Origin: an uncultured bacterium
GTDB lineage: Bacteria > Patescibacteriota > Minisyncoccia > Phycocordibacterales > GWA1-40-21
NCBI GenBank assembly: GCA_903832855.1
Contig: CAILDB010000012.1
Coordinates: forward strand, 4,368-68,367
Direction: 5' to 3'
Length of the DNA stretch: 64,000 bases
The position numbers and the translations under genes are program-made. The notes under the pieces are model-generated. The model saw only the letters and a list, made by a program, of their open reading frames with translations, was not told where the DNA came from and did not search any database. Shown here piece after piece: positions 11,344 through 49,617 of the stretch; within the stretch, counting starts at the first letter, position 1; every line of letters begins with the position of its first letter.

Positions 11344-11356
11344 CCTTGCCATGGGA
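11327..11356 (+). repeat. perfect 13+13 palindrome ccatggcaaggtc t gaccttgccatgg (family-2 core) overlapping the trmD stop
   Basis: The same CAAGGTC-N-GACCTTG core recurs at 8493, 21760 and 39167. Confidence 0.6.
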
Positions 11357-11406
11357 TGGAATTTTTTTATTCATTACTTTCAATTTTGTATGTTAGAATA
11401 ACTTCT

Positions 11407-13071
11407 ATGACACAAAAGCAAGCGCTGGATATTTTGAAAATGGGTTTTAATTGCTACATTACGGGAGCGGCTGGAAGCGGTAAGACGCATCTTTTGAATG
11501 AGTATATAAATTTTTTGAAAAATAAGGGAGTGGATGTTGGTGTGACTGCGTCAACGGGAATTGCGGCGACTCACCTCGGTGGTTCTACAATACATTCTTG
11601 GGCGGGGATTGGAATCAAAGATGAAATGAGTAATTATGATTTGGAAGATTTGGAAAGTAAAAAATATATTTATGACAGATTGAAAAATACGCAGGTGCTT
11701 GTGATTGATGAAATCTCAATGCTTCATCATTTTCGACTTGACCTTGTGGACTTGGTGGCGAGACATCTTCGCAGAGTGGATGCACCTTTTGGTGGAATGC
11801 AGGTGATATTGTGCGGAGACTTTTTTCAGCTTCCGCCGATTTCAAGAATGGGAGAGAGAGAATCACACTTTTCTTACAAATCCTCGGCATGGAGGGATTT
11901 AAATTTAAAATTTTGTTATCTGGAGGAACAGCATAGGCAGAAAGAGGGGAATCTTCTTAGAGTTCTAAATGACATCCGTGGAAATTGTGTGAGCGAAGTT
12001 ACGATTGAGATTTTGGAAGGAAGAAAAAATCAAAAAACTTTGCAAAATATTGAGCCGACGCGCCTGCATACTCATAATATAAATGTAGATACAATAAATG
12101 ATGGGGAGCTTAACAAAATTTCTGGACAGACTTTTATTTTTAATATGGAAAGTAAGGGCAGACAGCCACTTGTGGATATTTTGAAAAAAAGTTGTCTTGC
12201 TCCGGAAGTTTTGAAATTGAAAATTGGTGCAAAAGTAATGTTTGTAAAAAATAATCCTGAACTTGGATTTGCAAACGGAACGCTCGGAAAAATTGTTGAT
12301 TGCAGGTACGGACATCCGAGGGTTTTGACGACTTCAAATAAAATAATTGACGTGGAACCAGCGACTTGGATGATAGAGGAAGAAGGAAAGTTGAAAGCAC
12401 AAATTCAGCAGTTTCCACTTCGCCTGGCATGGGCGATAACCGTGCACAAAAGCCAAGGAATGAGTTTGGATGCCGTGGAGGTGGATTTGTCAAAATCATT
12501 TGAAAAAGGCATGGGATATGTCGCCCTTTCGCGTGTGAGGTCCCTAGAAGGCCTAAATTTGCTCGGACTCAATGGTGTGGCCCTTTCTGTAAATGACGAG
12601 GTTTTGGAGTATGACGAGATGTTTCGTAAGAGGTCAGAAATTGATGTGAAATTTTTGGAGGCGATGGATGAGAGCGAAAAGTCGGAAAGACAGGCGAAAT
12701 TTTTGGAAAAAATTTCGCCTGCTGACGGCTCCGTTCACGGCAAAAAAAAAGTTTCCGCTTCCGACAAAGTTAAGGAAATGATTTTGGAAGAAAGAGGTTT
12801 GAAAGAAATTGCAAAAATAAAAAATGTAACAATAGATACCGTCATTGCTCACTTAGAAAAAATAATTGAAAAAGATCCAAGCATTGATATTTCATATTTA
12901 AAAAAAGAAGTCCCGACAAACAAATTTATAAAAATATATTCCGCTTTCAAAGATTTGTATGGTGATAACCGCGACTTCCTGTTGTCCCCAGTTAAAAACA
13001 AACTTGGAAATGGTTTTACTTTTGAAGAATTGAAGGTGGTGAGGTTGTTTGTAAAAAAAGCACTGTCTTAA
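11407..13071 (+). CDS. Pif1/RecD-family 5'-3' DNA helicase with a C-terminal extension
   Basis: Walker A ITGAAGSGKTHLL, VLVIDEISM, ILCGDFFQLPPI, ITVHKSQGMSLD motifs. About 150 extra C-terminal residues. Confidence 0.7.
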   Translation: MTQKQALDILKMGFNCYITGAAGSGKTHLLNEYINFLKNKGVDVGVTASTGIAATHLGGSTIHSWAGIGIKDEMSNYDLEDLESKKYIYDRLKNTQVLVIDEISMLHHFRLDLVDLVARHLRRVDAPFGGMQVILCGDFFQLPPISRMGERESHFSYKSSAWRDLNLKFCYLEEQHRQKEGNLLRVLNDIRGNCVSEVTIEILEGRKNQKTLQNIEPTRLHTHNINVDTINDGELNKISGQTFIFNMESKGRQPLVDILKKSCLAPEVLKLKIGAKVMFVKNNPELGFANGTLGKIVDCRYGHPRVLTTSNKIIDVEPATWMIEEEGKLKAQIQQFPLRLAWAITVHKSQGMSLDAVEVDLSKSFEKGMGYVALSRVRSLEGLNLLGLNGVALSVNDEVLEYDEMFRKRSEIDVKFLEAMDESEKSERQAKFLEKISPADGSVHGKKKVSASDKVKEMILEERGLKEIAKIKNVTIDTVIAHLEKIIEKDPSIDISYLKKEVPTNKFIKIYSAFKDLYGDNRDFLLSPVKNKLGNGFTFEELKVVRLFVKKALS

Positions 13072-13115: not shown

Positions 13116-15422
13116 ATGAAGTTTGAACAATTAGGGCAAAAAACGGACTCGCAAGGTGAAATTTCAGCTCAGGAAAGCGAGCTCTTTATGATGGCCAAAA
13201 TGGAAACCGCAGATGAAAAAATTTTGGAACAATTTACACTAGAACAACAAAAAGAAATCAAAGAGAAACAAAAAATTCTTTCCTCCCTGGCTTATTATAT
13301 CAGCAAGGATTTTCAGATACCTATCGTTTTAGGTTTGCCAACAAAAGAATGTCCAAGCGGTTGGAAGTGGGTAAAAAATATGAAAGATGGAACGCAATTT
13401 ATTCAAATGAATGCTCATGATTTATTGACTAAGCCAATGGACTATCTACGCTTTGTCACTTCTCACGAAGGTGGACATGCCAGGATATCTCGTTTTGATT
13501 TCGTTGATATGACAGTTTATAACGAAAGAGGTTTTTCTTTTTTATTGAATGCCATAGAAGATCCACGAGACAATAATTTTGTGGCGGCTAACTATCCGCG
13601 TTTTGCCGAGCAGATGAAGCTGATTTATGAACAAGAGGAGATTTCAGAAAAAGAAACAAAGAAAAAAGCCAGTGATATGTTTGGTTTTCAACCTAGATTT
13701 ATGCAGGCTGGTTTTGAGTATATAAGACAATGGTATCGGGAAAGGACGAAGCAAAGTGCGGATATTTCCGCCGAATTACCAGCTGAAGTGCGAGCCGTCG
13801 TTAAAAAGACTATGGAATCAGCCAGCGGTGCTTGGAAAACTTATCCCACAAAAGAATTAGCCGATAAAGGTGGTGTTTTGTCTAGTGGTCAAAAAGTAGA
13901 TGGGGAGAAAATGATAACCGAATATGCCAAGCAATCATATGAAATTATTTTGGAAGAAATCTGGCCGGAATATCAGAAATTAGTAGAAAAAGATTTAGAG
14001 GATCAGAAAATGTCTGAACTACTAAAGGATCTTCAAAAAGAAAAACAGGAAAGAGAACAAGGTGAATCTGGTGATGAAAAAGGAAGTAAAAGTGGTGAAA
14101 AAAAAGATGGGGAGGGGAAAGGTGGGGACGGGTTACCAAAAGAATTAAAGGATAAGCTATCACCAGAAGAACAAAAAGAGCTTGAGAAAGCTATAGACAA
14201 AGCAATAGAAGATTCGAAAAAAGACGCAGAAAAATCAGAAGGTCAAGATACAGGTAAATTCAAAGCTATAGATATAGATTCACTTTCACCAGAATTGAAA
14301 AAGAAAATTCAGGATTTCTTGGATTCCTTGCCGGAAGAAAAGAAAAAAGAATTAGCAGAAAAAGCTGAGAAAGATCTGAGAGATTTTGAGAAGGAAATTG
14401 AAAAGGAAAGAGAGGGGAAATTGGTGGAAAATCCAGAGGAGAGAGAAAAAAGAGAAAGTGCGGAAAAATCGGAAAGAGAAAAAGAATTAGAGAAAGATAA
14501 AGACACGGAGGATGCTGATAAAAAAGAAAAAACGGATAAGAAAAAAGAACTGGATGAAAAAAAAGAAGCAGAAGAGAAGAGAAATAAAATAATAAAAGAT
14601 TCCGAAGAAATGCTTGAAAGAGTGAGAAAAAGCCTAAAGGGGCAAGAAAATGAATATCAAACAGAAATGAAACGGCTAGCCCCACAGATCAATTCTCTGA
14701 AAGAAAAATTAGCCGAAATATTTCAAGAGAGAAGGAAAAGAGGCATTAAAACTGGTTTTGAGGAAGGAGAAGAAATAGATGTGGAAAGACGCTTGCAAGA
14801 AAAAGCTAAGGGTATTTCTATTTTTGAGAGCCGTGCTTGGAGACGAACGGAATTACCAAAAGAGAAGGATTATGCAATTTCCTTGCTTGTAGATTTGTCT
14901 GGTTCAATGGAAGGTGAAAGAATAAAAGAGGCATTTGAAGCGACTGTCCTTTTTACTGAGGTCTTGAATTCTCTGGGTATAAAAACAGAAATCTTGGGTT
15001 TTAACGATCGCCTCTACGAATATCAAAAATTTAATGACCGACTTTCTGGGGATATAAGAAAAAAAATAATTACGATGGAAAGTCGAGTTCATTTGTCTGG
15101 GAGTGGATATAATGATGATGGTTGGGCTGTTACTGAAACGGCAAAAAGATTACAAGCAAGAAAAGAAAAAGAGAAACTTTTGCTGGTTATTTCTGATGGT
15201 GAGCCAGTAAATTCAAACAGACATGATGGTCCAGAATACGAGCTTGGAACGGTGGTAGAAAAAATAATGAGAGAGGGTGAAGTAAAAATAGTCGGACTTG
15301 GCTTGGGCCGTTCGGGAGTGGACGCTGTTAAGCAATTTTACCCAAAACATCTATTAGCTAATAGTGCCGAGCAAATGATTGAAAAGATTGGTGATCTGCT
15401 TTTAGAAGTAATAAAAGGGTGA
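13116..15422 (+). CDS. vWA-domain protein with an N-terminal HExxH zincin-like motif and a long E/K-rich coiled region; likely partner of the downstream MoxR-like ATPase
   Basis: HEGGH at FVTSHEGGHARISRF with a downstream Glu (NAIEDPRD). C-terminal vWA MIDAS LLVDLSGSMEG, SDGEP, VGLGLG. Paralogous to the 3..938 vWA. Confidence 0.6.
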   Translation: MKFEQLGQKTDSQGEISAQESELFMMAKMETADEKILEQFTLEQQKEIKEKQKILSSLAYYISKDFQIPIVLGLPTKECPSGWKWVKNMKDGTQFIQMNAHDLLTKPMDYLRFVTSHEGGHARISRFDFVDMTVYNERGFSFLLNAIEDPRDNNFVAANYPRFAEQMKLIYEQEEISEKETKKKASDMFGFQPRFMQAGFEYIRQWYRERTKQSADISAELPAEVRAVVKKTMESASGAWKTYPTKELADKGGVLSSGQKVDGEKMITEYAKQSYEIILEEIWPEYQKLVEKDLEDQKMSELLKDLQKEKQEREQGESGDEKGSKSGEKKDGEGKGGDGLPKELKDKLSPEEQKELEKAIDKAIEDSKKDAEKSEGQDTGKFKAIDIDSLSPELKKKIQDFLDSLPEEKKKELAEKAEKDLRDFEKEIEKEREGKLVENPEEREKRESAEKSEREKELEKDKDTEDADKKEKTDKKKELDEKKEAEEKRNKIIKDSEEMLERVRKSLKGQENEYQTEMKRLAPQINSLKEKLAEIFQERRKRGIKTGFEEGEEIDVERRLQEKAKGISIFESRAWRRTELPKEKDYAISLLVDLSGSMEGERIKEAFEATVLFTEVLNSLGIKTEILGFNDRLYEYQKFNDRLSGDIRKKIITMESRVHLSGSGYNDDGWAVTETAKRLQARKEKEKLLLVISDGEPVNSNRHDGPEYELGTVVEKIMREGEVKIVGLGLGRSGVDAVKQFYPKHLLANSAEQMIEKIGDLLLEVIKG

Positions 15423-15434
15423 TATAATAAACAT

Positions 15435-15842
15435 ATGTCCATTTCATTAAGAGATTTTATAAAAACCGCTGAGAAATCCAAAGAAGCTTCTATTTTGGTT
15501 GCCGAAATGACGATGGATATGTCCGAATATTCAAAATTATTGGAAAATTTAGGTTATTTTTGTGTAGTTGATTCTAGTGAAGCACAAAAATATTTTGGAG
15601 AGGGTAGGAAAGTTTATGGGGTTGTATCAGAAAAAAACGCAGATTTTTATTATACCTTGGCCAAGGACTATGCTGGAGGAGATATCCATCTTTTTGATTT
15701 TGTTAAAAAAGAAAAAATCTGGATTACGCCAAATAGAGAGACCTCGGCTTTTGTTTTGATAATTCAGCTAAAGGATATTGAAAATCTCAAATCAAAAGGT
15801 TATGATTTTTCCACTGTTTGCGAGTCGGCTTATAGAAAATAA
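15435..15842 (+). CDS. hypothetical protein lying between the vWA and AAA-target genes
   Basis: ORF with close spacing; no recognisable motif. Confidence 0.3.
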   Translation: MSISLRDFIKTAEKSKEASILVAEMTMDMSEYSKLLENLGYFCVVDSSEAQKYFGEGRKVYGVVSEKNADFYYTLAKDYAGGDIHLFDFVKKEKIWITPNRETSAFVLIIQLKDIENLKSKGYDFSTVCESAYRK

Positions 15843-15870
15843 ATTATTATAAAATTAAATAAATAAAAAA

Positions 15871-17850
15871 ATGGAAGGACTACCAATAATACAAAATCCA
15901 GAGATACCAGAGGAGATACCAAAAAGAAAACCAGAAAAAATAAAATTTGGTAAGCTTGGCGTTGCCCTTGAAGTAGCTGAGAATAGAGGTAATGCTCGAG
16001 ATACGAGAGAATATGAGGATGATTTTAAGATTCCAACCATTGAATGGATGGAGGGTGAGATTGCTATGGCATTTCGAGAAAATGAACCGATTTTGATTGA
16101 GGGTGGAACTGGTATTGGTAAAACAAGGACAGTGGAGAGGATGTGTGCCCAACTTGGTTATGAATTATATAAGCTTCCTTGTTCTTCCTCTACCACAGAA
16201 AGGGAAATGATGGGGCGTTATGTTTCCAATTCCGAACGAAAGTCAAAATTAGATCCAGAAGTCATTTTTGCTCTTGGGGTTATTGCCGAAGGGCTCAAGG
16301 AGGAACCTGGTAAAATAAAAGTTATATATTTAGACGAAATAAATGCTATGGACGGAGCTGTCGGTGCCAGATTGCATGATATTTTAGATGAAGCAAAAAA
16401 AGAAAAAGTAAAGGGAAGAGTAAAACTTGTGGAAGATGCTGGAGAAGTTTTAGAATTTGATCCTAAAAGAGTAAAGATAGTGGCTACGATGAACTCCGCC
16501 GATTCAAAAAATACTCACGCCCAGAAATTATCCGAGGCACTACTACGGCGTTTTACTTACAAGAGAACAGTAGATGAATTGCCAGACGTGGAATTTTTAA
16601 GCATTGCTTTACAAAAATTTCAATCAAATGAAATTCTGAAGGATTTACCGGGTATTTCCGATGAGGGGGAATTGATAAAGGCATACTCTGAATGTCATAA
16701 GGCCTTACAGGGTTTAAAAAGAAATAATCAGATTGGCGTAGGCGTCGCTCAAGATTTTAAATTTGAAGATATAGATTATCTAAAGAGAGTAATCAAAAAA
16801 GTGGCAGTATTTTGGGAAGACGGTATCTTTACCGATTTGCCATCGGCTTTCAGAGAGGCTGTAAAAATCGTTTATACCGGTATGATTGTTGATCCAACTG
16901 AAAGAAAAATGATGGAGGAACAGATTTCTAAATTGGATTTCAAGCCAGTGGAAGATCCCAACAGAAAAGGTTTGGATGACAGGAGAAAAGCCAAAAAGTT
17001 GGCTGAAGAAGCGGAAAGAAAAAAGAAAGAAGAGGCAGAAGCTTTGAAAGCTAAAACCGAGTTGGGCAGGGCTGAATTGGCACTTGAAGAAATCAAGAAA
17101 AAAGAGGCTAAATTAAAAATGGCACTCCGAAAAGGTAAAAAAGAGCTGTCTGGCGAGACGGCAGAAGCAGAAGAGATTTCAGTAGAATATAAAAGAAAAG
17201 ATACTAAAGGCAAAGAAAAATCCGAAACTATTTCTTTAAACTTTGAAAAAGAGCTTACTGATTGGACTGATTTTTATACTAAACACGGTATTGAGTTACC
17301 TGCAGATTTTGCTGAACAGATGCAAGACATATGGAATAGAAATGCAGATGTGATAACAGAAGCTATCAAAGAAAAAGGGTTCAATAATGTTTTATTTATT
17401 CCAGATGGCCTTCCTTCATTGTCTATTTTGGACGAAAAGATGACGGAAGGTTATGAAAAAGCAAAAGGAAACAAGACATATTGGGAAATGAAAAAAGAAG
17501 AAATCACGGAGAAAAGAAGCGGTGGTCGAATTATTTTACTTCACGATTCTATTGAACCAGATGATATTCCTGAATTGGCCGTAACCCTAGGAAAAACTGC
17601 CCAATCCTTTTTGGACGCCAAAGAAGAACTTACAGTTTCTGAATACCTACTTTTGCAAAGGGAAATATTTGAAAAAACGGGTAAACATATAGACGACAAA
17701 AGAACCAGTTGGGTTCCTGGTGCTAGGGTCGGTTCCGGTGTCGTTCGTGCCTGCTGGGGTCCTGATGGTGCGCAGGTGGGTGTGAATTCCGGTGCGCCTG
17801 GCGATTCCTTTTCTGATATTGGGTGCCGGCTCTCCCGCTGTTTCAAATAA
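15871..17850 (+). CDS. DGR target T1: MoxR-like AAA+ ATPase fused to a coiled coil, a conserved module and a C-terminal diversified CLec-like domain (VR1)
   Basis: Walker A LIEGGTGIGKT, Walker B VIYLDEIN, sensor-1 ATMN, MoxR-type LLRRF. The C-terminal 40 aa are encoded by VR1 and end GCRLSRCFK. Confidence 0.75.
   Translation: MEGLPIIQNPEIPEEIPKRKPEKIKFGKLGVALEVAENRGNARDTREYEDDFKIPTIEWMEGEIAMAFRENEPILIEGGTGIGKTRTVERMCAQLGYELYKLPCSSSTTEREMMGRYVSNSERKSKLDPEVIFALGVIAEGLKEEPGKIKVIYLDEINAMDGAVGARLHDILDEAKKEKVKGRVKLVEDAGEVLEFDPKRVKIVATMNSADSKNTHAQKLSEALLRRFTYKRTVDELPDVEFLSIALQKFQSNEILKDLPGISDEGELIKAYSECHKALQGLKRNNQIGVGVAQDFKFEDIDYLKRVIKKVAVFWEDGIFTDLPSAFREAVKIVYTGMIVDPTERKMMEEQISKLDFKPVEDPNRKGLDDRRKAKKLAEEAERKKKEEAEALKAKTELGRAELALEEIKKKEAKLKMALRKGKKELSGETAEAEEISVEYKRKDTKGKEKSETISLNFEKELTDWTDFYTKHGIELPADFAEQMQDIWNRNADVITEAIKEKGFNNVLFIPDGLPSLSILDEKMTEGYEKAKGNKTYWEMKKEEITEKRSGGRIILLHDSIEPDDIPELAVTLGKTAQSFLDAKEELTVSEYLLLQREIFEKTGKHIDDKRTSWVPGARVGSGVVRACWGPDGAQVGVNSGAPGDSFSDIGCRLSRCFK
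17725..17844 (+). other. DGR variable repeat VR1
   Basis: About 120 bp matching the TR at 19040-19165. About 18 mismatches fall at TR adenines and 3 at non-A positions. IMH is ggGtgccggctctcccgcTgtttc. Confidence 0.75.
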
Positions 17851-17956
17851 GTTAGCTTTTAACTTTTATTATTTTAAATTCTTTTTTTAATTTTTTAATT
17901 TTAGCTTTAGAAAATTTACTGGTGGAATAATGTAAAATATGCTATAATAGATATAT

Positions 17957-18181
17957 ATGAAATTTAGACCAGCATTGTTTTGGGATACCAATCCAGATAA
18001 AATAGATATCCAAAAAAACGCTCAATATATAATTGAGCGAGTTTTGGATTTGGGTGAGGATAAGGAAGTAAGTTGGTTGTGGAAGACATATGACAAGTTA
18101 CTTCTTAAGAACACGGTATTAAAATCTAGGTCGCTTAGACCAAGTTCAAAAACATTATGGACTCTTCTTCTAAAAAGTTAA
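17957..18181 (+). CDS. small protein overlapping the downstream nucleotidyltransferase gene; possible antitoxin-like partner
   Basis: 74-aa ORF whose stop overlaps the start of 18157..18837 by 25 nt, an operon-like arrangement. Confidence 0.3.
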   Translation: MKFRPALFWDTNPDKIDIQKNAQYIIERVLDLGEDKEVSWLWKTYDKLLLKNTVLKSRSLRPSSKTLWTLLLKS

Positions 18182-18837
18182 TAAATTGGCATTATGAAAT
18201 CTTGCCTGTTGAGACGAAACAGGCTCTTGATTTTTTGTCTAAGGAAAAATGGTTAGAAAAATCAGGATGGTATTTGGCTGGCGGGACAGCTCTAGCTTTG
18301 CAAGTAGGAAATCGTAGGTCTGTTGATTTGGATTTCTTCACAACCCAAAAAGATTTTGATGAGAAAAAATTATTAACCAATTTTATTGGAAATTCAAATT
18401 GGCAGACATCTGTAGAAGAAAAAAATACCATCTATGGAGTGCTTTTGAACGCAAAAATTAGTTTTATTGCCTATCCTTTTTTCGTTCCCAAACAAGAATT
18501 CATCCAATATGGCTCAATCAATGTTTTGTCGCCTATTGATATCGCGGTGATGAAGATAATCGCCGTTTCTCAAAGAGGAAGGAAGAGGGACTTCTTTGAC
18601 TTATATTGGTGTGCCAAAAATATTAAATCTTTAGACAATTTAATTACAAAATTAAAAGTTCAGTATCCTTCAGTGGCGCATGATTACAATCATATTTTGA
18701 AAAGTTTGGTTTATTTTGCCGATGCGGAAAGCGACCCAGAACCGGAAATATATTTTAAAGCAAGTTGGAAAGAAGTGAAAGATTTTTTTGAAAAAGAAAT
18801 TCCTAGAATAACAGTTGAATTAATCGGCTTAAATTAA
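18157..18837 (+). CDS. nucleotidyltransferase of the AbiEii/DUF1814-like family (putative abortive-infection / type IV TA toxin component)
   Basis: Motif WYLAGGTALALQVGNRRSVDLDFF resembles the GGTAL...RxSxDLDF nucleotidyltransferase signature. Confidence 0.5.
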   Translation: MDSSSKKLINWHYEILPVETKQALDFLSKEKWLEKSGWYLAGGTALALQVGNRRSVDLDFFTTQKDFDEKKLLTNFIGNSNWQTSVEEKNTIYGVLLNAKISFIAYPFFVPKQEFIQYGSINVLSPIDIAVMKIIAVSQRGRKRDFFDLYWCAKNIKSLDNLITKLKVQYPSVAHDYNHILKSLVYFADAESDPEPEIYFKASWKEVKDFFEKEIPRITVELIGLN

Positions 18838-19039
18838 ATTCTTTGGTGAGTACGGTCTATGAGTTAGGAAATAGGCCTACCAAAGTGCCCAAGTAAGATA
18901 GAAGATGGCGAAGAGATGTCGCTGTAATGTCTTAAGTAAGGAGGGTAATAGATAAAGAAACAGCAGTTTGACCTTGGGGAATATGTCGCCCTAATAAATG
19001 GAGTATTGTTTCCATGATTGTCCTAGGTAAGGTCAGGCT

Positions 19040-19165
19040 AAAAGAGAGTCGGTTCCAATGTCGTTCGTGCCTACTGGAATCCTGATAATGCACAGGTGAA
19101 TGTGAATTCCAATTCGCCTGACAATTCCAATTCTAATATTGGTTGCCGGCTCTCCCGCCGTTTCG
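19040..19165 (+). other. DGR template repeat (TR)
   Basis: Intergenic. In the VR reading frame it encodes VGSNVVRAYWNPDNAQVNVNSNSPDNSNSNIGCRLSRRF, with 8 AAT codons at the positions that vary in VR1 and VR2. IMH* is ..ctcccgcCgtttc. Confidence 0.8.
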
Positions 19166-19172
19166 TTTATTA

Positions 19173-19547
19173 CTAATACCTTACACCTCTTTCATATTTC
19201 AGCCAGTTCATAGCTTGTTTACCTGCCTCTTGGAGATGATTCTCCATTTCCAGATATTTTGGTCCTTCAATCAGTTTACAATTTAAAGCCAGACGAAAGA
19301 GGATTTTGAGAAGTTCTATCTTGGTATTGGTTTGTGAGAGAAGTTTCTCCTTATCCAATTTATTGGCGCAATTTGCCATAATCGTCAGCTCCATTGCCGA
19401 TAAAGTAGTATTTTCTATCTTTTCACCAAGTGTGTATCTCTCAAATTTTGGTAGAGAGAAAATTATCTTATGCACTCTTTCATAAATGACAAAAAGTTCG
19501 GTGAGAAGTGGTATTTCTAATTTTTTAAAACTATGATTATTTTCCAT
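19173..19547 (-). CDS. avd: Avd-like four-helix-bundle protein (23S rRNA IVS protein family) - DGR accessory variability determinant
   Basis: 124 aa. Pattern LPKFERYTLGEKIENTTLSAMELTIMAN ... ELLKILFRLALNCKLI ... YLEMENHLQEAGKQAMNWLK matches the IVS/Avd helix pattern. Lies directly between the TR and the RT. Confidence 0.55.
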   Translation of the reverse strand: MENNHSFKKLEIPLLTELFVIYERVHKIIFSLPKFERYTLGEKIENTTLSAMELTIMANCANKLDKEKLLSQTNTKIELLKILFRLALNCKLIEGPKYLEMENHLQEAGKQAMNWLKYERGVRY

Positions 19548-20510
19548 AAAAATTTTAATGAATTATTTAATCTTGATAATATTTTATCTGCTTGGCAGAT
19601 ATTTCGGCGGGGAAAGACCAGTAAAATGGATGTAAAAGTGTTTGAAAGACATTTGGAAGATAATTTGTTTGATTTATATGAAGAACTGAAAAATAGTGAA
19701 TATATACATAGAGCATACAAGTTTTTTGTAGCATTTGATAGTAAGAAAAGGGATATTCATGTTGCGGAAATTAGAGATAGAATTGTTCATCGTTTGATTT
19801 ACGATTATTTAGTAGAGATGTATGAACCACTTTTTATATCCGATTCATATTCTTCTAGAATTGGTAGGGGGTCACATAAGGCGATAAAAACATTTAGATA
19901 TTTTGCAAAATTAGTCAGTGGAGAAAACCACGGGAGATGTTTCGTCTTGAAATGTGATATTCAAAAATTTTTTCAGAGTGTTGATTGTGACATCATCGTC
20001 CACTTATTGAAGCAAAAAATCACTGATGAAAAAATTTTGAAAATAATGGAAGAAGTTGTCAATAGTTTTAAAGAAGGCATTCCGCTTGGTAATGTTACCA
20101 GTCAAATTTTTGCAAATATTTATTTGAATGATTTTGATTTTTTTGTAAAAAATATCCTAAAGGTTAGATACTATGTTCGCTACAATGATGATTTCGTGAT
20201 TTTAGATAATAACCCAGAACGACTGAGCCTTTTATTAGAAAAAATTAGGGATTATTTGGAAAAAGAAAGATTATTGAAAATACCGGAACATAAGGCAAGT
20301 ATCAGGAAGCTGCAGTGGGGAATTGACTTTCTTGGCTACACTATTTTACCAAATGCTGTCCTACTTAGAAATAAAACAAAAGCAAAAATGTTTTCTCGTG
20401 CAAACGAGAAAAACATAGATTCTTACCTTGGATTACTGAAGCATTGTAATTCGTTTAATCTGCGTCAAAAGCTCATCTTTTGGGTAAATAATAGGGTGTC
20501 ACAACTTTGA
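19533..20510 (+). CDS. DGR reverse transcriptase
   Basis: RT motifs: RDRIVHRLIYDYL (motifs 1-2), GIPLGNVTSQIFANIYL (the DGR-specific [I/L]GxxxSQ in motif 4), YVRYNDDFVIL (motif 5, YNDD in place of YxDD). No maturase or endonuclease domain. Cognate TR lies just upstream. Confidence 0.85.
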   Translation: MIIFHKNFNELFNLDNILSAWQIFRRGKTSKMDVKVFERHLEDNLFDLYEELKNSEYIHRAYKFFVAFDSKKRDIHVAEIRDRIVHRLIYDYLVEMYEPLFISDSYSSRIGRGSHKAIKTFRYFAKLVSGENHGRCFVLKCDIQKFFQSVDCDIIVHLLKQKITDEKILKIMEEVVNSFKEGIPLGNVTSQIFANIYLNDFDFFVKNILKVRYYVRYNDDFVILDNNPERLSLLLEKIRDYLEKERLLKIPEHKASIRKLQWGIDFLGYTILPNAVLLRNKTKAKMFSRANEKNIDSYLGLLKHCNSFNLRQKLIFWVNNRVSQL

Positions 20511-20546
20511 GTTGTTTGATTTGCGATTATTTGTTATTATTTATAC

Positions 20547-21650
20547 ATGGAAAGCTTTGAGGCACTTATACCAAAATTTAGAAAAGCTAAGGCGGAAAAA
20601 GCAGAGACCGCGGAAACTAAGACCGAGGGACTTTTAGTTGAAGAAAAAACCGAATTATTGAGTCAATTAGAAGATCATATACAAAGAGTCAGTACTGAGA
20701 GAGAAAATTTGGAAGCAGAATTAGAAAAAGCCAGGAAATCTGGCAATTTTTCCAAATTTAATAAATTGCAAGAAACCGTCAAAAGTGAAATATCTAAAGC
20801 AGAAGGAATTCAAAGAAAGATTGAGGGTAGGACGACCAGTTCAGAAATTTCCGGTGTTTATTCTTCCATAGATGCTGGAGGTAAAGAAAAAATTGAAGCT
20901 ATTTTATTAAGCTTTGAAGCAGAACTCACTACATGGACTGATTTTTATACTAAACACGGTATTGAGTTACCTGCAGATTTTGCTGAACAGATGCAAGACA
21001 TATGGAATAGAAATGCAGATGTGATGACAGAAGCAATAACAGAAAAGGGATTTGACCGAGCTATATTTATTCCAGAAATAGTTGACGGTGTAGATTTAAA
21101 AAAGATTGAAGAAGAAATGACTAAGAGTTACAAGGAAGAAGCCAAAAAGGCTGGGTTACCTGAGAATGATACTTATTTAGGTATTGATATTAAAAAGGTG
21201 GTCAATTCCAGGACGGGTAGTCGCATAATTCTTATTCATTCTGCTCCAGACTTGACGGCTCAACCAGAACTTTTGAAAACTTTGGATAAAAAATATGGAG
21301 GGGAGAAAACTGATGGTGTAGACAATAAAGCCGAGGATTTCATTAAGGCGGGTGAAGAACTCACTTTGTCTGAGTGGTTTATCTTTCAGAGAGAAATTTG
21401 GGAAAAGACTGGTGTTCATCTTGATGGCAAGAAGGGGTCCGATGGCTATGTCAAACCTACTTGGTGTGGAGGGTCACGGATGGGTTCGGGAGTCGGTTCC
21501 CATGTCGTTCGTGCCTGCTGGTATCCTGTTTTTGCCGGGGTGGATGTGGTTCCCATTCGCCTGTCTATTCCGTTTCTAGGTTTGGTTGCCGGCTCTCCCG
21601 CTGTTTCCAATAAGTTAGCTTTTAACTTTTATTATTTTAAATTATTTTAA
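20547..21650 (+). CDS. DGR target T2 (coiled-coil N-terminus, conserved module, VR2). The C-terminal reading frame is disrupted by a 1-nt deletion in VR2
   Basis: Shares the module, including a 93-bp stretch identical to T1. After ..GVDV the frame is -1 relative to the TR and reads through the expected stop into the conserved 3' flank (..VPIRLSIPFLGLVAGSPAVSNKLAFNFYYFKLF). Confidence 0.6.
   Translation: MESFEALIPKFRKAKAEKAETAETKTEGLLVEEKTELLSQLEDHIQRVSTERENLEAELEKARKSGNFSKFNKLQETVKSEISKAEGIQRKIEGRTTSSEISGVYSSIDAGGKEKIEAILLSFEAELTTWTDFYTKHGIELPADFAEQMQDIWNRNADVMTEAITEKGFDRAIFIPEIVDGVDLKKIEEEMTKSYKEEAKKAGLPENDTYLGIDIKKVVNSRTGSRIILIHSAPDLTAQPELLKTLDKKYGGEKTDGVDNKAEDFIKAGEELTLSEWFIFQREIWEKTGVHLDGKKGSDGYVKPTWCGGSRMGSGVGSHVVRACWYPVFAGVDVVPIRLSIPFLGLVAGSPAVSNKLAFNFYYFKLF
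21484..21607 (+). other. DGR variable repeat VR2 (with a 1-nt deletion relative to the TR)
   Basis: All substitutions versus the TR fall at TR adenines, including the 5' extension (TR aaaagag against VR2 gttcggg). IMH is ggttgccggctctcccgcTgtttc. Confidence 0.75.
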
Positions 21651-22034: not shown

Positions 22035-25000
22035 ATGAAACAAGCTTCTTTTGTAACCGGCGGTAAGACACAGAAAAAATATTTCGGAAAATTCAGAAAA
22101 CCTTTGGTTGATACTCCCAATCTTGTGGAGCACCAGCTCATTTCATACGCAAACTTTCTTGAGACAGGTCTTCCTGATGTGCTCAAAGAATTTTCTCCTA
22201 TCAAGGACTATGCTGACAAAAAGTTTGAGCTATCTTTCACCGGTTTTGAAATTGAGCAACCGAAGTATGATGAATATCATGCAAAAGACAAAAAGATTTC
22301 TTACGAAGGATCACTAAAAGTAAAAGTTAGTTTAAAAAATAAAACTCTAGGCACTGTAAAAGAACAAGAAATATTTTTGACAGAAATTCCTATGATGACA
22401 GGCCATGGTACTTTTATTGTAAATGGAATTGAAAGAGTCATCGTCCCACAGCTTGCTCGTTCATACGGTATTTTCTTTACAACAAATGAAAGTAAAGGCA
22501 AAAGTTATTTTGGTGCAAAAGTCATTCCAGCAAGAGGTGCTTGGATAGAAATTGAGTCGGATGCAGATGGCGCAATTTATGTAAAAATAGATAAAAAAAG
22601 AAAATTCCCAATTCCTTCTCTCCTTCGTGTTCTTGGCGTTAAGACAGACAAGGAAATGCTCGACCTTTTTGCGGGTGATGAAGAGACAAAGAAAGTAATA
22701 GAGACATCTTTGACGAAAGATCACGCCAAAACTCAAGACGAATCATATGTGGAAATTTATAAAAGACTTCGAGATGGCGACCTCGCTGCAGTAGACAACG
22801 CAAAAGGTTTTATTAATTCTATTTTTAATGTTGAGAGATATGATATTTCAAAAGTAGGAAGATTCAAATTCAATAAGAGATTCAGTAAACCGATGGACGA
22901 AAAGTCTCTTGAGCAGAAAGCTCTTACAATAGATGACTTGGTTACTTCCATCAAATACATCACAGCGCAAAATAATGACCCCGAGGCTATCGAGGACGAT
23001 ATTGACCATTTAGGTTCTCGCAGAGTCAGATTTGTAGGTGAGCTTCTTCAGGCAAAAGTGAGAGTCGGTATGACTCAGATGAAGAGAAATATTCAGGACA
23101 GAATGTCTACTATTGATCCGGATATTTCTATGCCTGTTCAATTTATTTCTCCTCGACCTCTTCAGGCGAGAATAAAAGAATTTTTTGCCACAAACCAGCT
23201 CTCTCAATTTATGCAACAAGAAAATATTTTGCAGGAGATTGAGCAGTTGAGAACTCTTTCGGCTCTTGGCCCAGGAGGACTGACTCGCGAACGCGCAGGA
23301 TTTGAAGTGCGTGATGTTCATTCATCTCACTATGGTAGAGTTTGTCCCGTTCATACACCAGAAGGTCAGAACATTGGTCTTATTTTGCGTTTATCTATTT
23401 ATGCCAGAGTCAATGAATTTGGAATGATTGAAACCCCTTATGCCAAAGTCAAAAATGGAGTTATTACAGAAGAGATAAAATATTTTAATGCGCTTGAGGA
23501 AGAAAATTTTAAAATTGCTCACGCTGCGCAGGAGTATGATGAAAAAGGAAAGATCACAAATCATGAAGTGGAAGTTCGTTTGAACGGAAAACCACAGATT
23601 TGTAAAAGAGAAGAAGTGGACTATATAGATGTTGCTACAAACCAAGCATTTTCTATTGCACCTTCTATGATTCCTTTCTTAAATCACGATGATGCAAACA
23701 GAGCTCTTATGGGTTGTAACATGCAAAAGCAAGCAGTACCTTGTATTATTCCTGAGGCACCACTTGTGGCTACGGGTATTGAGGGTGATGCTGCAAGATA
23801 CACAGGAAGAATTATTTATGCAGAAGAAGAAGGTAATGTAACTCATGTCGATGCAAATAGAATTGTATTAAAAAATAGTAAAGGAAAAGAGAAAGAATAC
23901 AAGCTTGTAACTTTTTCAAAGACAAACAGTTTGACTGCTTTTCATCAGAGACCGATGGTATCTCTCGGAGAAAAGGTTAAAAAAGGAGCGCTTCTTGCCG
24001 ATACTTCTTCTTCTGTAAATGGAGAAATAGCTGTCGGTCAAAACGGTCTCGTTGCCTTTATGACTTGGTCTGGTGCAAACTATGAGGACGCTATCATCCT
24101 TTCGGAGAGGATTGTAAAAAACAGTAAATTCACATCCGTGCACATTGAAGAATTTATTGTAAGTGTTCGTGATACTAAGCTCGGTCCAGAAATTACCACT
24201 CACGATATTCCAAATGTTGGCGAGACCAAATTAAAAAATCTTGACGAAGACGGAATCATCCGTGTAGGTGCTGAAGTGATGCCGGGAGATATCCTCGTCG
24301 GTAAAATTACTCCAAAAGGTGAGACACAGCTAACTCCAGAAGAGAGACTACTCAGATCAATTTTCGGAGAAAAAGCTAGAGATGTAAAAGACACTTCAAA
24401 GAGACTTGAAGGAGGAAAGAGGGGAAGAATTATTTCTGTAAAAATCTTTTCAAGAGAAAGCGGAGACAAACTTGAATCAGGAATTATAAAAAGAATTCAC
24501 ATTGAAGTCGCACAAGTCAGAAATGTTTCTATCGGTGACAAGCTTGCCGGAAGACACGGAAATAAAGGTGTTATTTCAAAAATTCTTCCGGAAGAAGATA
24601 TGCCATATATGGAAGATGGAACTCCAATTGATATTATTCTTACACCACTTGGTGTTCCTTCTCGTATGAACCTCGGACAAATTCTCGAGGTGCATCTTGG
24701 ACTTGCAGCAAATACTTTGAACTATCAGGCCATCGTTCCGCCTTTTGCGGGAGCCACAGATGCGGAAATTAAAGAGGAACTCATAAAAGCTGGATTCAAA
24801 CACAACGGCAAGATGAAACTTTTTGATGGAAGAACAGGGGAGTCATTTGAACAGGAAATTGCTGTCGGTTATATGTATATTTTGAAGCTTCACCATGAAG
24901 TTGAAGACAAGATTCACATGAGATCTATTGGTCCATACTCAATGATTACGCAACAGCCACTCGGAGGAAGATCACAAGGAGGAGGTCAGAGATTTGGAGA

Positions 25001-25229
25001 AATGGAGGTCTGGGCACTGCTTGGATATGGAGCTGCATACACACTTCGTGAAATGCTTACAATTAAATCAGACGATATTGTCGGAAGGTCTGCTGCATTT
25101 GATTCAATTGTAAAAGGTGAGCGTTTGAAACAGCCAGGGATTCCAGCTTCGTTTAATGTCCTTCTAAATAGTCTTAAAGGTCTTGCTCTTGACATTGAGC
25201 TTAAAAAAGAAGATGGGGATTTTGTATAA
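22035..25229 (+). CDS. rpoB: DNA-directed RNA polymerase subunit beta
   Basis: Conserved beta-subunit blocks (GRHGNKGVISKILP, NMQRQAVP-type region, SIGPYSMITQQPLGGRSQGGGQRFGEMEVWAL). Confidence 0.95.
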   Translation: MKQASFVTGGKTQKKYFGKFRKPLVDTPNLVEHQLISYANFLETGLPDVLKEFSPIKDYADKKFELSFTGFEIEQPKYDEYHAKDKKISYEGSLKVKVSLKNKTLGTVKEQEIFLTEIPMMTGHGTFIVNGIERVIVPQLARSYGIFFTTNESKGKSYFGAKVIPARGAWIEIESDADGAIYVKIDKKRKFPIPSLLRVLGVKTDKEMLDLFAGDEETKKVIETSLTKDHAKTQDESYVEIYKRLRDGDLAAVDNAKGFINSIFNVERYDISKVGRFKFNKRFSKPMDEKSLEQKALTIDDLVTSIKYITAQNNDPEAIEDDIDHLGSRRVRFVGELLQAKVRVGMTQMKRNIQDRMSTIDPDISMPVQFISPRPLQARIKEFFATNQLSQFMQQENILQEIEQLRTLSALGPGGLTRERAGFEVRDVHSSHYGRVCPVHTPEGQNIGLILRLSIYARVNEFGMIETPYAKVKNGVITEEIKYFNALEEENFKIAHAAQEYDEKGKITNHEVEVRLNGKPQICKREEVDYIDVATNQAFSIAPSMIPFLNHDDANRALMGCNMQKQAVPCIIPEAPLVATGIEGDAARYTGRIIYAEEEGNVTHVDANRIVLKNSKGKEKEYKLVTFSKTNSLTAFHQRPMVSLGEKVKKGALLADTSSSVNGEIAVGQNGLVAFMTWSGANYEDAIILSERIVKNSKFTSVHIEEFIVSVRDTKLGPEITTHDIPNVGETKLKNLDEDGIIRVGAEVMPGDILVGKITPKGETQLTPEERLLRSIFGEKARDVKDTSKRLEGGKRGRIISVKIFSRESGDKLESGIIKRIHIEVAQVRNVSIGDKLAGRHGNKGVISKILPEEDMPYMEDGTPIDIILTPLGVPSRMNLGQILEVHLGLAANTLNYQAIVPPFAGATDAEIKEELIKAGFKHNGKMKLFDGRTGESFEQEIAVGYMYILKLHHEVEDKIHMRSIGPYSMITQQPLGGRSQGGGQRFGEMEVWALLGYGAAYTLREMLTIKSDDIVGRSAAFDSIVKGERLKQPGIPASFNVLLNSLKGLALDIELKKEDGDFV

Positions 25230-25258
25230 AAACTAATTAAAATCATTAAATAAAAAAC

Positions 25259-28200
25259 ATGAATTATAAAAATAACAAACAAAGTGTAAATGATTTCAAT
25301 GCGGTTTCTATCAAAGTCGCATCACCAGAAAAAATAAAAGGCTGGTCTTTCGGAGAAGTTACAAAACCAGAGACAATCAACTACAGAACTCAAAGAAGTG
25401 AAAGAGGCGGTCTTTTTGATGAAAAAATATTCGGTCCAGACAAGGATTATGAATGTTATTGCGGAAAATACAGAGGCATCAGATATAAAGGAATTGTCTG
25501 TGAAAAATGCGGAGTGGAAATCACAAGGTCAATAGTGAGAAGAGAAAGAATGGGACATATTGAGCTTGCTACACCGGTATCACACATCTGGTTTTTGAGA
25601 GGAACACCATCTCGTCTCGGTATGATTTTGGGTATGGGAATGAATGATTTGGAAAAAGTCATTTATTTTGCTGGATATATCGTCACGAAAACAATTCAAG
25701 CCGAAAAAGAGAGAATTTTGAGAGAAATTGAATCGGAATTTAAATCAAAAGTGAAAGCTGTCAGTGATGAGAAGACAAAAGAGGCTATCAAGGAACTTGC
25801 AGTAAATGCCAAAAAAGAAGTGGAAAGTATTCAAGAGGGTTTTGTTTTAGACGAGGTGATGTTCCATAAATTCTCTATGAAATACGGAACGATGTTTGAA
25901 GCGGGAATTGGGGGAGAAGCAATTTATGAAATATTGAGAAAAGTTGACTTGAAGGCTCTTGAAAAACAAACAGTGGTGGCTTTGGAAACTTCCAACACAA
26001 TTGATTCTGAAAAATTAAATAAAAGATTGGCTCTGATTAAGTCAATGATAATTTCTGGCGTAAGACCAGAATGGATGTTTTTGACTACTATTCCTGTCAT
26101 CCCACCAGCACTTCGTCCGATGGTTCCTCTTGATGGAGGAAGATTTGCGACTTCAGATGTAAATGATTTGTACAGAAGAATTATAAACAGAAATAATCGA
26201 CTTCTTAAACTCAAAGAAATTCACGCTCCGGATGTTATTTTGAGAAATGAAAAAAGAATTTTACAGGAGGCAGTGGATGCTCTCATAGATAATTCTATCA
26301 GACACGGTAACTCTGCATTGTCTGCGATGACTTCTGCACAAAAGAGACCTTTGAAATCTCTCGCAGATAACTTAAAAGGAAAAAGAGGAATATTTAGATT
26401 AAATCTTCTCGGTAAAAGAGTTGACTATTCTGCAAGGTCAGTCATTGTCGTTGGTCCAGAACTTCACCTTGATCAATGCGGTCTTCCAAAACATATGGCA
26501 CTCGAGCTTTTCAGACCATTTGTTATTTCAGAACTTTTGAAAAAAGAATTTGCTTTCAATATTCGTGGAGCAGGAAAGCTCATTGATGATGGTATTCCAG
26601 AAGTTTGGACAATCCTCGAAGAAGTGATTAAGGGTAAATATGTTCTATTAAACAGAGCACCTACTCTTCACCGACTTGGTATTCAGGCATTTAGACCTAT
26701 ACTTATTGAAGGAAATGCTATTCAGGTGCACCCACTTGTTTGTACTGCTTTCAACGCTGACTTTGATGGAGATACAATGTCCGTTCACTTGCCACTTGGC
26801 GAAGAGGCCCAAACAGAGGCGAGAGAAATGATGGCAGCAGATAAAAATATTTTGAAACCAGGGAATGGTGATCCGACTATCTCTGCAAAACTTCTAGACA
26901 TTGTTCTTGGATGTTATTGGATGACCAAAGTTGTCTCTGGCGAAAAAGGAGAAGGTAAATATTTCTCATCACCAAATTCTGCAATCACAGCATATGACTT
27001 CGGTGCAGTAAGTTTCAGAGCAAAAATAAAAGTTTTGCCTACAGAAAAAGAAAAGTATGCAGAGTTTGAAGGAAAGCCTTTTGAGACATCCGTCGGCAGA
27101 TTGCTTTTTAATAGTGCTTTGCCGAAAGATCATCCGTTTGTTAATAAGGAAATTGACAAAAAACAATTATCAAAAATTATTGATGAACTCATCAATAAAC
27201 ACGGTCCAAATAAAGTGGGTGAGATACTTGATAAAGTAAAAACATTTGGATTTAAATATGCAACTTATTCTGGTATTACTTGGGGACTTGATGATATTGC
27301 TGTGCCAAAGGAAAAAGAGGGAATTATTAAAATTGCAAAAGAAAGAAGTGAAGAGGTTTACGCACAATTTAATGATGGTTTGCTTGCCGAAGAGGAAAGA
27401 ATTAGAAAAAATATTGAAATCTGGCATGGAGCAAAAAGTGAACTTGAAAAAATTATTCCTGAGTCGCTTGATAAAAATGGTTCTGTCTATGATATGTGGA
27501 AATCAGGTGCGAGAGGTTCACTCGGATCACTTACACAGATGGTGGGTATGAAGGGTTTGATTCAAAATACCGCCGGAGATACAATTGAATTTCCTGTCAT
27601 AAGCTCCGCAAAAGAAGGACTTACTCCGATTGAATATTTCATTACTACTCACGGTTCTAGAAAAGGACTTTCGGACACAGCTCTCAATACTGCAAAAGCA
27701 GGATATCTTACAAGAAGGTTATTTGATGTTGCTCAAGATATTCTTATTAAAGAAGTTGATTGTGGAACAAAAGCTAGTATTTGTATTAGCAGAAATAGCG
27801 GACCAGAAGGTAGCTCATCAATTGCAAAAAATGTAAGAGGAAGATTTCTTGCACAAGAAGTTCTCGGGAAAGATGGAAAGGTTTTGTTTGAAAAAGGGCA
27901 TCTTGTTACAAAAGAGAATTCTCAAAAAATAGATAGCGAAGAAGTTGAAAAGGTCTTTGTAAGATCTCCTCTTACTTGTAAAACGCTTCACGGAATTTGT
28001 GTGAAATGCTATGGTATGGATCTCGGAAAAAGCGAAGTTATAGATATTGGTGAAGCGGTAGGAACAGTCGCCGCGCAAGCTATCGGTGAGCCGGGAACAC
28101 AGCTTACGATGAGAACATTCCATGCTGGAGGTACGGCTTCTGTCGGTGGAGATATTACTTCGGGTTTGCCTAGAGTTGAAGAAATTTTTGAAAAGAGAAG

Positions 28201-49296: not shown

Positions 49297-49617
49297 GGCT
49301 CCGGAGGTAGGGATCGAACCTACGACCAATCGCTTACATTTGTTCCAAAATTTCTTTTGGCATGGACTATATCATCATCCTTCACAAAATTGTGAATTGG
49401 ATGTGGGGCGTTTCCCGGGATTTAAAAAATCCAAGTACTCTCTTTCGAGATAGTCTCTGAACCTTCAAGTCATGAGTGACTTGCTTGGCTGCTGATTGCC
49501 CGTTCGCCTCAAGCGAATTTGGGTTTCCAGCAATTAACCTCATTTTTCATCCTAAATTACTTTAGGAAGCTGCAAGTACGCTTACAGGCGATCGCTCTAC
49601 CGCTGAGCTACTCCGGA
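49297..49617 (-). tRNA. tRNA-Asn(GUU) interrupted by a 247-nt group I intron in the anticodon loop (between positions 35 and 36). The mature form has a class I variable loop, discriminator G and an encoded CC
   Basis: 5' exon 49584-49617 (TCCGGAG TA GCTC AGCGGTA GAGC G ATCGC CTGT). 3' exon 49297-49336 (TAA GCGAT TGGTC GTAGG TTCGATC CCTAC CTCCGGA G CC). Acceptor, D, anticodon and T stems all pair. The anticodon loop CUGUUAA is the same as E. coli tRNA-Asn. Confidence 0.65.
49337..49583 (-). ncRNA. group I self-splicing intron within tRNA-Asn
   Basis: Contains the canonical group I core elements R (GTTCAGAGACTA) and S (TGATATAGTCC), which form P7. The 5' exon ends in U, the intron ends in G (..caaatg), and a GCAG at intron position 11 could form P1 with exon CUGU. 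Confidence 0.65.

Follow-up and report, generated by a model that had tools for sequence, protein, structure and literature searches.

The DNA analysed here (hereafter the window) is a stretch of 64,000 nucleotides of contig CAILDB010000012.1, with a G+C content of 36.8%, and contains a chromosomal diversity-generating retroelement (DGR) of a bacterium of the Patescibacteria, or candidate phyla radiation (CPR). The identity of the locus as a DGR is practically certain. Read along the forward strand, the cassette begins with the gene of vWA1 (13116-15422, +), a protein with HEGGH...NAIEDPRDN in its N-terminal region and a CobT/NorD-like vWA domain at its C-terminus, separated by a K/E-rich segment. 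It is followed by p135 (15435-15842, +), a conserved protein of 135 aa, and by T1 (15871-17850, +), the first diversified target, in which an AAA_5/MoxR-class ATPase is joined through a helical K/E linker to a module with a putative C-type lectin (CLec) fold. The 3' end of T1 carries the first variable repeat (VR1, 17720-17845, +; core 17725-17844). A toxin-antitoxin-like insertion (17957-18837, +) then precedes the template repeat (TR, 19040-19165, +), the accessory gene avd (19173-19547, -; 124 aa), the gene of the DGR reverse transcriptase (RT, 19533-20510, +; 325 aa) and a second, short target, T2 (20547-21650, +), which is composed of a coiled coil and a CLec module and whose frame is broken in its own variable repeat (VR2, 21484-21607, +).

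The TR, VR1 and VR2 are the three copies of a direct repeat, and they were compared over a core of 120 nt of the TR (19045-19164) that contains 26 adenines. Within this core, VR1 departs from the TR at 21 positions, of which 18 are adenines of the TR and 3 are other bases; VR2 shows the same numbers, 18 and 3, together with a 1-nt deletion opposite A19105 (between 21548 and 21549 of the window). The concentration of mismatches at adenines proposed by an earlier, sequence-only reading of this DNA is consequently found in both alignments, with 18/21 substitutions in each, and the probability of at least 18 of 21 substitutions falling at A is 7e-10 by the binomial test and 1.5e-12 by Fisher's test. 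When the TR is read in the frame of T1, 26 of its 28 adenines occupy codon positions 1-2 and it encodes the Asn-rich peptide ...SNVVRAYWNPDNAQVNVNSNSPDNSNSNIGCRLSRRF; the AAT-rich character noted earlier is correct, but the AAT codons number 9 and not 8. The repeat ends on its 3' side with the GC-rich segment GGCTCTCCCGC(T/C)GTTTC, which is the same in VR1 and VR2 and has one C/T difference in the TR. The initiation of mutagenic homing (IMH) sequences of VR1 (17832-17844) and VR2 (21595-21607), ..CTCCCGCTGTTTC, accordingly differ by a single base from the IMH* of the TR (19152-19164), ..CTCCCGCCGTTTC, and the claim of a one-base difference is borne out by the comparison of the repeats. A 6-bp AT-rich hairpin, AAGTTA-GCTTT-TAACTT, lies 5 nt past both IMHs (17849-17865, +, and 21612-21628), and its VR1 and VR2 copies are identical; it is weak, with z-scores of -0.6 in the VR1 flank and -2.55 in the VR2 flank. 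A search of the window for a third VR matching TR 19040-19165 found none. The RNA fold of the TR region (z = -1.5) and a promoter scan, which was no better than shuffles (32 versus 24.9), were not used.

The RT, which carries LGNVTSQ and YNDD as had been proposed for the frame at 19533-20510, finds its best match among the sequences of the PDB in 8ub7_A, a 328-aa RT (E 2.3e-34, over RT residues 5-291). We take this RT, common to entries 8ub7-8ube, to be the bRT of Bordetella phage BPP-1. Its assignment to Pfam RVT_1 was confirmed by the Pfam, NCBIfam and PHROGs searches, it matches PHROG 1423 (phage RT) at 8.7e-91, and the RTs of Vibrio phage VP585, crAss-like phages and Bordetella phages match it over 94-97% of its length. 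These matches place the RT, at the level of sequence, in the DGR clade. The retron and group II intron readings of the RT were rejected, as the matches to solved structures of these kinds are far weaker (2e-13 for the retron-type and 1e-17 for the group II intron RT) than that to the 8ub7 RT. The neighbouring small gene, which had been described as Avd-like and as lying between the TR and the RT, is indeed an avd: its product scores 47.6 bits against Pfam bAvd, above the cut-off of 40, and matches the PHROG 'Avd protein of DGR' at 4e-15, while NCBIfam DivGenRetAVD is matched at 3.4e-15 with 56 bits, under the equivalog cut-off of 80. The description requires one correction, in that the gene is on the minus strand, antisense to both neighbours, and overlaps the start of the RT gene head-to-head by 15 nt. 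The order TR, avd(-), RT is kept in all the relatives recovered by a hidden Markov model (HMM) census. In BPP-1, the RNA segment 3' of the TR primes cDNA synthesis. Here, the RNA spacer 3' of the TR would be antisense to the 3' end of avd.

The most distinctive component of the locus is T1. Residues 74-228 match Pfam AAA_5 (5e-17), whereas the AAA_3 score, 18.9 bits, is below the cut-off of 27, and the nearest PDB sequences of the ATPase domain (residues ~60-330) are the AAA modules of Midasin, which give the best match, followed by NorQ and CbbQ. The Walker A motif GGTGIGKT, the Walker B motif VIYLDEIN, and the ATMN and LLRRF motifs do not vary among six orthologues with 53-69% identity. The CLec module corresponds to residues 436-659 (nt 17176-17847), and VR1 to the last 42 residues. 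The architecture predicted earlier, a MoxR-type ATPase fused through a coiled coil to a diversified, CLec-like C-terminal domain, is supported, the connecting segment being helical and rich in K and E. The evidence that this class of VR adopts a CLec fold is moderate but consistent; a Foldseek search gave no significant match, and a profile of the target module found nothing among the PDB sequences. T2 is 46% identical to T1 residues 388-638 (tblastn). It is, like T3, a further target near the left edge of the window, a module without the ATPase, as had been proposed, with the reservations that the assembled T2 has a frameshift within its VR and that T3 depends on another TR. Between T1 17172-17405 and T2 20843-21076 the nucleotide identity rises to 81-87% and the encoded protein, ...FYTKHGIELPADFAEQMQDIWNRNADV..., is nearly identical, far above the rest of both genes (46% aa identity overall), which suggests a recent gene conversion between the targets. 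No hydrophobic segment and no signal-like N-terminus was found in vWA1, p135, T1, T2 or T3, in agreement with the earlier view that T1 and T2 bear no export signals, and the only KD19 value above 1.6 among the five proteins is in the frameshifted tail of T2. Since they have no transmembrane (TM) segment or signal peptide, and since an ATPase needs ATP, T1, T2 and T3 are predicted to be cytoplasmic.

The C-terminal domain of vWA1 matches Pfam CobT_C (4.5e-18) and VWA, with CobT and NorD as the nearest PDB sequences, and its metal ion-dependent adhesion site (MIDAS) is complete (DLSGS...T...SDG) and invariant among the orthologues. The N-domain contains HEGGH and, 23 residues on, NAIEDPRDN; HExxH is present in 81/85 of its homologues and is accompanied by NxxxDxRxN at a distance of 23-34 residues in 65/85. 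For this N-domain we found no Pfam match even at E up to 10, no match among PDB sequences and no annotated homologue among the 85 relatives. The vWA/HExxH gene had been placed directly before T1; it belongs to the same unit, but p135 (15435-15842) intervenes. This protein is 67-88% identical in three related loci (L001, L003 and L005) and has no match in Pfam (E up to 10), NCBIfam, PADLOC, PHROGs or the PDB sequences. A functional partnership between the AAA+ and vWA proteins is very probable. An aerobic cobaltochelatase of the CobS/CobT kind was considered and rejected, with TIGR01651 CobT reaching 36.7 bits against a cut-off of 759; no CobN-like gene was seen among the neighbours in any of the locus tables.

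The composition of the unit can be appreciated from its relatives, which the HMM census collected as 43 loci. Type A, represented by the window and L001-L007, has the order vWA, p135, AAA::CLec, TR, Avd(-), RT and one or more short targets, p135 being specific to this layout. L001-L007 come from other Patescibacteria metagenome-assembled genomes and metagenomes, lie in differing chromosomal neighbourhoods and, in L001, L003 and L005, possess their own A-biased TR/VR pairs. In type B (L008, L009, L016, L021, L024 and L035, with partial copies in L018, L022 and L042), the order is AAA::CLec (~820 aa), TR, Avd(-), RT, an optional short target, a vWA protein with HEIEH (~660 aa) and a short target. 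Every RT-bearing locus with enough flank (the window, L001-L005, L008, L009, L016, L021, L024 and L035) contains both the vWA and the AAA::CLec genes, so that the linkage of AAA::CLec fusions with vWA-HExxH genes in related genomes, which had been suggested as a check, is observed. In all 43 loci the CLec module is carried by the ATPase or stands alone, and the vWA proteins bear the HExxH N-domain only. The gene content of these loci shows that vWA, AAA::CLec, TR, Avd, RT and a short CLec target are co-inherited as a set, in two layouts, across Patescibacteria; the host names attached to the homologues are Patescibacteria, Moraniibacteriota, Yonathbacteria and Paceibacterota. An exhaustive profile search returned 838 representatives, 160 of them at E up to 1e-30, among which are short targets, proteins of 650-1100 aa that join AAA_5 to the module, and AAA_5 proteins whose G/D/S/Y/W-rich C-termini are of other kinds. 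A peptide-pattern scan of genome contigs recovered 2 loci only, the derived patterns being too specific. No relatives were found in a search of viral contigs, which gives no evidence for a phage origin.

The two genes inserted between T1 and the TR do not belong to this set. They encode a DUF6922 protein (17957-18181) and an AbiEii nucleotidyltransferase (18157-18837; Pfam 66.5 bits, with an AbiEii match in PADLOC), and the upstream gene is DUF6922 rather than AbiEi. The pair is absent at the same position in L001, L003, L005 and all type B loci. The gap between target and TR (17851-19039 in the window) is empty in L001 and L003, and contains a GIY-YIG gene in L005 (12109-12363) and in a second DGR of the same organism, DGR-2 (1207-1461 of L043). 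The DUF6922/AbiEii pair is a lineage-specific insertion and not a conserved part of the cassette, contrary to the suggestion of a toxin integral to it. Because the pair is missing elsewhere and a GIY-YIG gene occupies the same spot in L005 and DGR-2, the gap after the first target seems to be a landing site, or insertion hot spot, for selfish genes.

DGR-2 lies across the left edge of the window (L043 1-6275; window position 1 = L043 4282). On longer contigs of the same organism it consists of a 355-aa target, the GIY-YIG gene, TR2, Avd(-), RT2, vWA2 and T3. The window itself contains the C-terminal 311 aa of vWA2 (3-938, +; 672 aa in full), whose frame is open to position 3 at the left edge, and directly after it T3 (981-1994, +), a short CLec-module target of 337 aa identified by tblastn with T1 and T2. 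vWA2 matches Pfam VWA at 3.9e-10, has the MIDAS sequence DRSGS and is 24% identical to vWA1 over 273 aa, while RT2 is 56% identical to RT1. The VR of T3 (~1873-1992) carries the IMH-like CCTCCCGCTGTTTC and differs from TR2, located ~2.5 kb left of the window, by 15 mismatches at A and 2 elsewhere. As TR2, RT2 and vWA2 are found upstream of T3 and TR2 has an A-biased match to its VR, the organism carries two DGRs, which are separated by 11 kb and do not share a vWA gene but have one each. T3 as a target of TR 19040-19165 was rejected, given that the window holds no third VR of this template and that the T3 VR is templated by TR2; the attribution of T3 to the DGR under study is accordingly withdrawn in favour of TR2/RT2, outside the window.

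We propose that the locus is best explained as a DGR-diversified AAA+/vWA intracellular sensor in which the variable domain is borne by the ATPase, a reading that we hold to be probable. The sequence directly implies that RNA of the TR (19040-19165) would be copied by the RT, together with Avd, with errors specific to adenines, and that the resulting cDNA, guided by the IMH, would take the place of the final ~120 nt of both targets, T1 and T2. Around 18 adenine positions, mostly in the 9 AAT codons, would in this manner be randomised within the last 40 residues of the CLec-fold domain. By analogy with NorQ-NorD, CbbQ-CbbO and CobS-CobT, a hexameric ring of T1 would engage the vWA protein and display six hypervariable lectin domains, which might bind a changing ligand in the cytoplasm; part of a phage or of some other invader is the most plausible candidate. 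Remodelling powered by ATP could then pass the capture on to vWA1, perhaps a zincin-like metallopeptidase, which would process the ligand or signal, with the short targets T2 and T3 acting as free or co-assembling recognition subunits. The role in sensing or defence, which is drawn from analogy, has in our estimation somewhat less than an even chance of being right. More tentative still is the possibility that the DGR of this Patescibacteria lineage is obligately coupled to a dedicated CobS/CobT-like machine, with the hypervariable lectin domain on the motor and a zincin-like domain on the vWA partner, which would constitute a self-contained, reprogrammable intracellular device of the capture-and-remodel or capture-and-cleave type; that such a device would serve these bacteria of minimal genome as an adaptive-like immune receptor or a substrate selector is part of the same reading and equally doubtful. 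Its architecture would be distinct from that of the VMAP ternary systems, and no account of such a device was met in the literature covered here.

Another explanation of the same architecture would be a housekeeping MoxR-vWA system for chaperoning or metal insertion, similar to CobST, NorQD or CbbQO, in which the DGR has taken over the end that binds the client, so that its client range is broadened or shifting and no conflict role is involved. The nearest sequence relatives of both partners, CobT/NorD and NorQ/CbbQ, are those expected of such a system, and the PHROGs families matched are 'porphyrin biosynthesis' for the AAA domain and 'aerobic cobaltochelatase CobT subunit' for the vWA protein. 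Nevertheless, the scores are far under the equivalog cut-offs, as seen above for CobT, the AAA+/vWA pair occurs only inside DGR cassettes in the loci examined, and the cassette is found in varying chromosomal contexts. Moreover, we know of no precedent for hypervariation of a housekeeping client site. We regard this explanation as improbable.

It could also be considered that the diversified proteins serve episymbiosis, the lectin domains recognising molecules of the basibiont after unconventional export or on imported material, with the AAA+/vWA pair as an assembly or export chaperone. Roles in attachment and host interaction have been suggested for the DGRs of CPR and DPANN organisms (Paul et al, 2017, as related in PMC10907252), most characterised DGR targets are surface proteins, and the cassette contains no detected defence effector. 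These considerations are opposed by the absence of a signal peptide or TM segment from all five proteins, by the covalent attachment of the variable domain to an ATP-dependent motor and by the conservation of the cassette without secretion genes in the 43-locus census, and we consider the episymbiotic function unlikely, although less so than the housekeeping one.

Several observations weigh against the proposal of an intracellular sensor. No VMAP, protease, TIR or other recognised effector was found in the cassette with Pfam and PADLOC. The zincin-like character of the vWA1 N-domain is a lead that derives from its motif, and the full-length model of T1, built on a 6-sequence alignment, is poor (pLDDT 51) and unusable. 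The deletion in VR2 opposite TR A19105 shifts the frame of T2 21 codons before its end and eliminates the conserved GCRLSRCF terminus; when repaired, the frame ends in GCRLSRCFQ*, as in T1. Finally, the database copies are clonal, display no sign of current diversification and are uninformative on turnover: T1, T2 and T3 recur with identical sequence on 25, 42 and 47 contigs respectively, and the window is matched at 100% identity along 11.8-13.1 kb by two independent assemblies.

The last two observations also bear on the possibility that the DGR is a decaying, inactive element whose TR/VR differences are historical. In favour of decay, the broken form of T2 is the only one among its 42 contigs, VR1 is invariant in all database copies and T1 is separated from the TR by an inserted toxin-antitoxin module. 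On the other hand, the RT, Avd, TR, IMH and T1 are all intact with their catalytic motifs kept, and copies with 0 single-nucleotide polymorphisms in 13 kb are silent on turnover. The frameshift itself coincides with a TR adenine, where a recent homing error would be expected to strike, and the VRs of other DGRs are known to carry indels and frameshifts (Wu et al, 2018, PMC5758913); for these two reasons a homing error is the simplest reading of the VR2 deletion, which may alternatively be an assembly artefact. A sister population from Hainich H52 groundwater is represented by two assemblies, L003 and L004, with 12 differences in 19.6 kb. Two of the 12 lie in VRs, those of a duplicated pair of short targets (L003 14596 and 16317), where one and the same TR-adenine position shows an A-to-G change in both, and they provide a weak hint of DGR-type turnover that argues against decay. 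We judge an inactive element to be improbable.

The sensor proposal must be set against previously described systems. DGRs of CPR bacteria with AAA-ATPase::CLec targets show no essential difference from the present one: the host group is the same, the targets have an N-terminal Midasin/AAA_5 domain and a C-terminal VR without TM segment or signal peptide, and one TR can serve several targets, just as one genome can hold several DGRs. Fusions of AAA and CLec domains, known since 2017, are cited as the most frequent target architecture of CPR DGRs (Paul et al, as cited by Dore et al, 2024, PMC10907252). A Midasin-type AAA domain was also reported in targets from CPR bacteria ('UVR4/Midasin'), with the fold of the VR left undecided, in a study that describes a cassette architecture, B3, as typical of CPR (Wu et al, 2018, PMC5758913). 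The targets of CPR clade 2 typically have neither TM segments nor recognisable domains, and whether such domain-poor targets are genuine non-membrane-bound proteins was left open (Roux et al, 2021). Since AAA-CLec targets, Midasin domains and TM-less CPR targets have all been published, the feature that had seemed unusual is already known, and the description of this type of target as under-described does not hold (PMC10907252 citing Paul et al; PMC5758913).

The linkage of MoxR/vWA genes with DGRs has been published for cyanobacteria and proteobacteria (Kaur et al, 2020, PMC7159879; Dore et al, 2024, PMC10907252), where DGR-diversified MoxR-vWA systems were proposed as sensors of threats or invaders, and threat sensing by MoxR-vWA systems has experimental support in Actinobacteria (2026 preprint). 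The vWA-MoxR-VMAP systems (PMC7159879, PMC10907252) similarly encode together a MoxR-class AAA+ protein, a MIDAS vWA protein and a DGR-diversified CLec, all predicted to be cytoplasmic, with ligand sensing proposed to be relayed through the ATPase. They differ in that the CLec/FGS domain is on the vWA component or on a separate protein beside the MoxR gene, whereas it is here on the ATPase, and in that a third VMAP or peptidase/TIR effector is present. In addition, the vWA protein has here an N-terminal HExxH domain, as opposed to the C-terminal effectors of those systems, and the RT is of the CPR lineage and not of clade 5. Membership of the VMAP ternary systems was rejected, there being no VMAP component detected and the CLec being fused to the ATPase and not to the vWA protein. 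The earlier proposition that the diversified domain feeds a vWA-MoxR-type ATPase system is therefore retained with regard to linkage and domain fusion, but not as a VMAP ternary system; it would work like the MoxR-vWA sensors, diversified by DGRs, that have been put forward for cyanobacteria and Thiohalocapsa, with the difference that the variable domain is carried by the ATPase.

NorQ-NorD, CbbQ-CbbO and CobS-CobT share with the locus adjacent genes and intact MIDAS and Walker motifs, and are the nearest sequence relatives of both partners; each of them, however, serves one fixed client (NOR, Rubisco and CobN), while the present pair bears a hypervariable domain on the ATPase and is situated in a retroelement cassette. 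The BPP-1 DGR (Mtd/Avd/TR/bRT) has an RT of the same clade, an Avd, an A-biased TR/VR pair, IMH and IMH*, and a C-terminal CLec VR. Its target is the extracellular tip of the tail fibre, in contrast to the predicted cytoplasmic targets described here, and the locus further differs from BPP-1 by the position of avd on the opposite strand between the TR and RT and by the short, AT-rich nature of the post-IMH hairpin. The aspects that may be new are the fold-level support for a CLec domain in this class of VR, the invariant linkage with vWA/HExxH (and, in type A, with p135) in two layouts, and the twin DGRs. No literature linking DGRs with CobT-like or vWA genes in CPR was found in a search that did not extend to Paul et al (2017).

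The CPR, or Patescibacteria, are unusually rich in DGRs, and the locus with its relatives offers a concrete list of parts for the role of these elements: an active-looking AAA+ motor with a variable CLec, a MIDAS vWA partner with HExxH, p135 and free short targets. The inheritance of these parts as a block supports the proposition that intracellular hypervariation by DGRs is coupled to ATP-driven remodelling, and would make the Patescibacteria a third major lineage with intracellular use of DGRs, besides the cyanobacteria and the purple sulfur bacteria. The analysis nominates specific candidate complexes and overturns nothing that has been published.

In the window, the cassette is flanked by a Pif1-type helicase on one side (11356-13071) and by rpoB/rpoC on the other (22035-28945). 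A distantly related type B cassette, L009 (15380-20975), also adjoins a Pif1 helicase and rpoB, while closer type A relatives are located after obg or glmS. Away from the retroelement, a group I intron of 247 nt (Rfam RF00028, 80 bits, 49344-49593) splits the anticodon loop of a tRNA-Asn(GUU) gene (49297-49617, -); missed by the default tRNA scan, this tRNA gene was recovered by ARAGORN with introns allowed.

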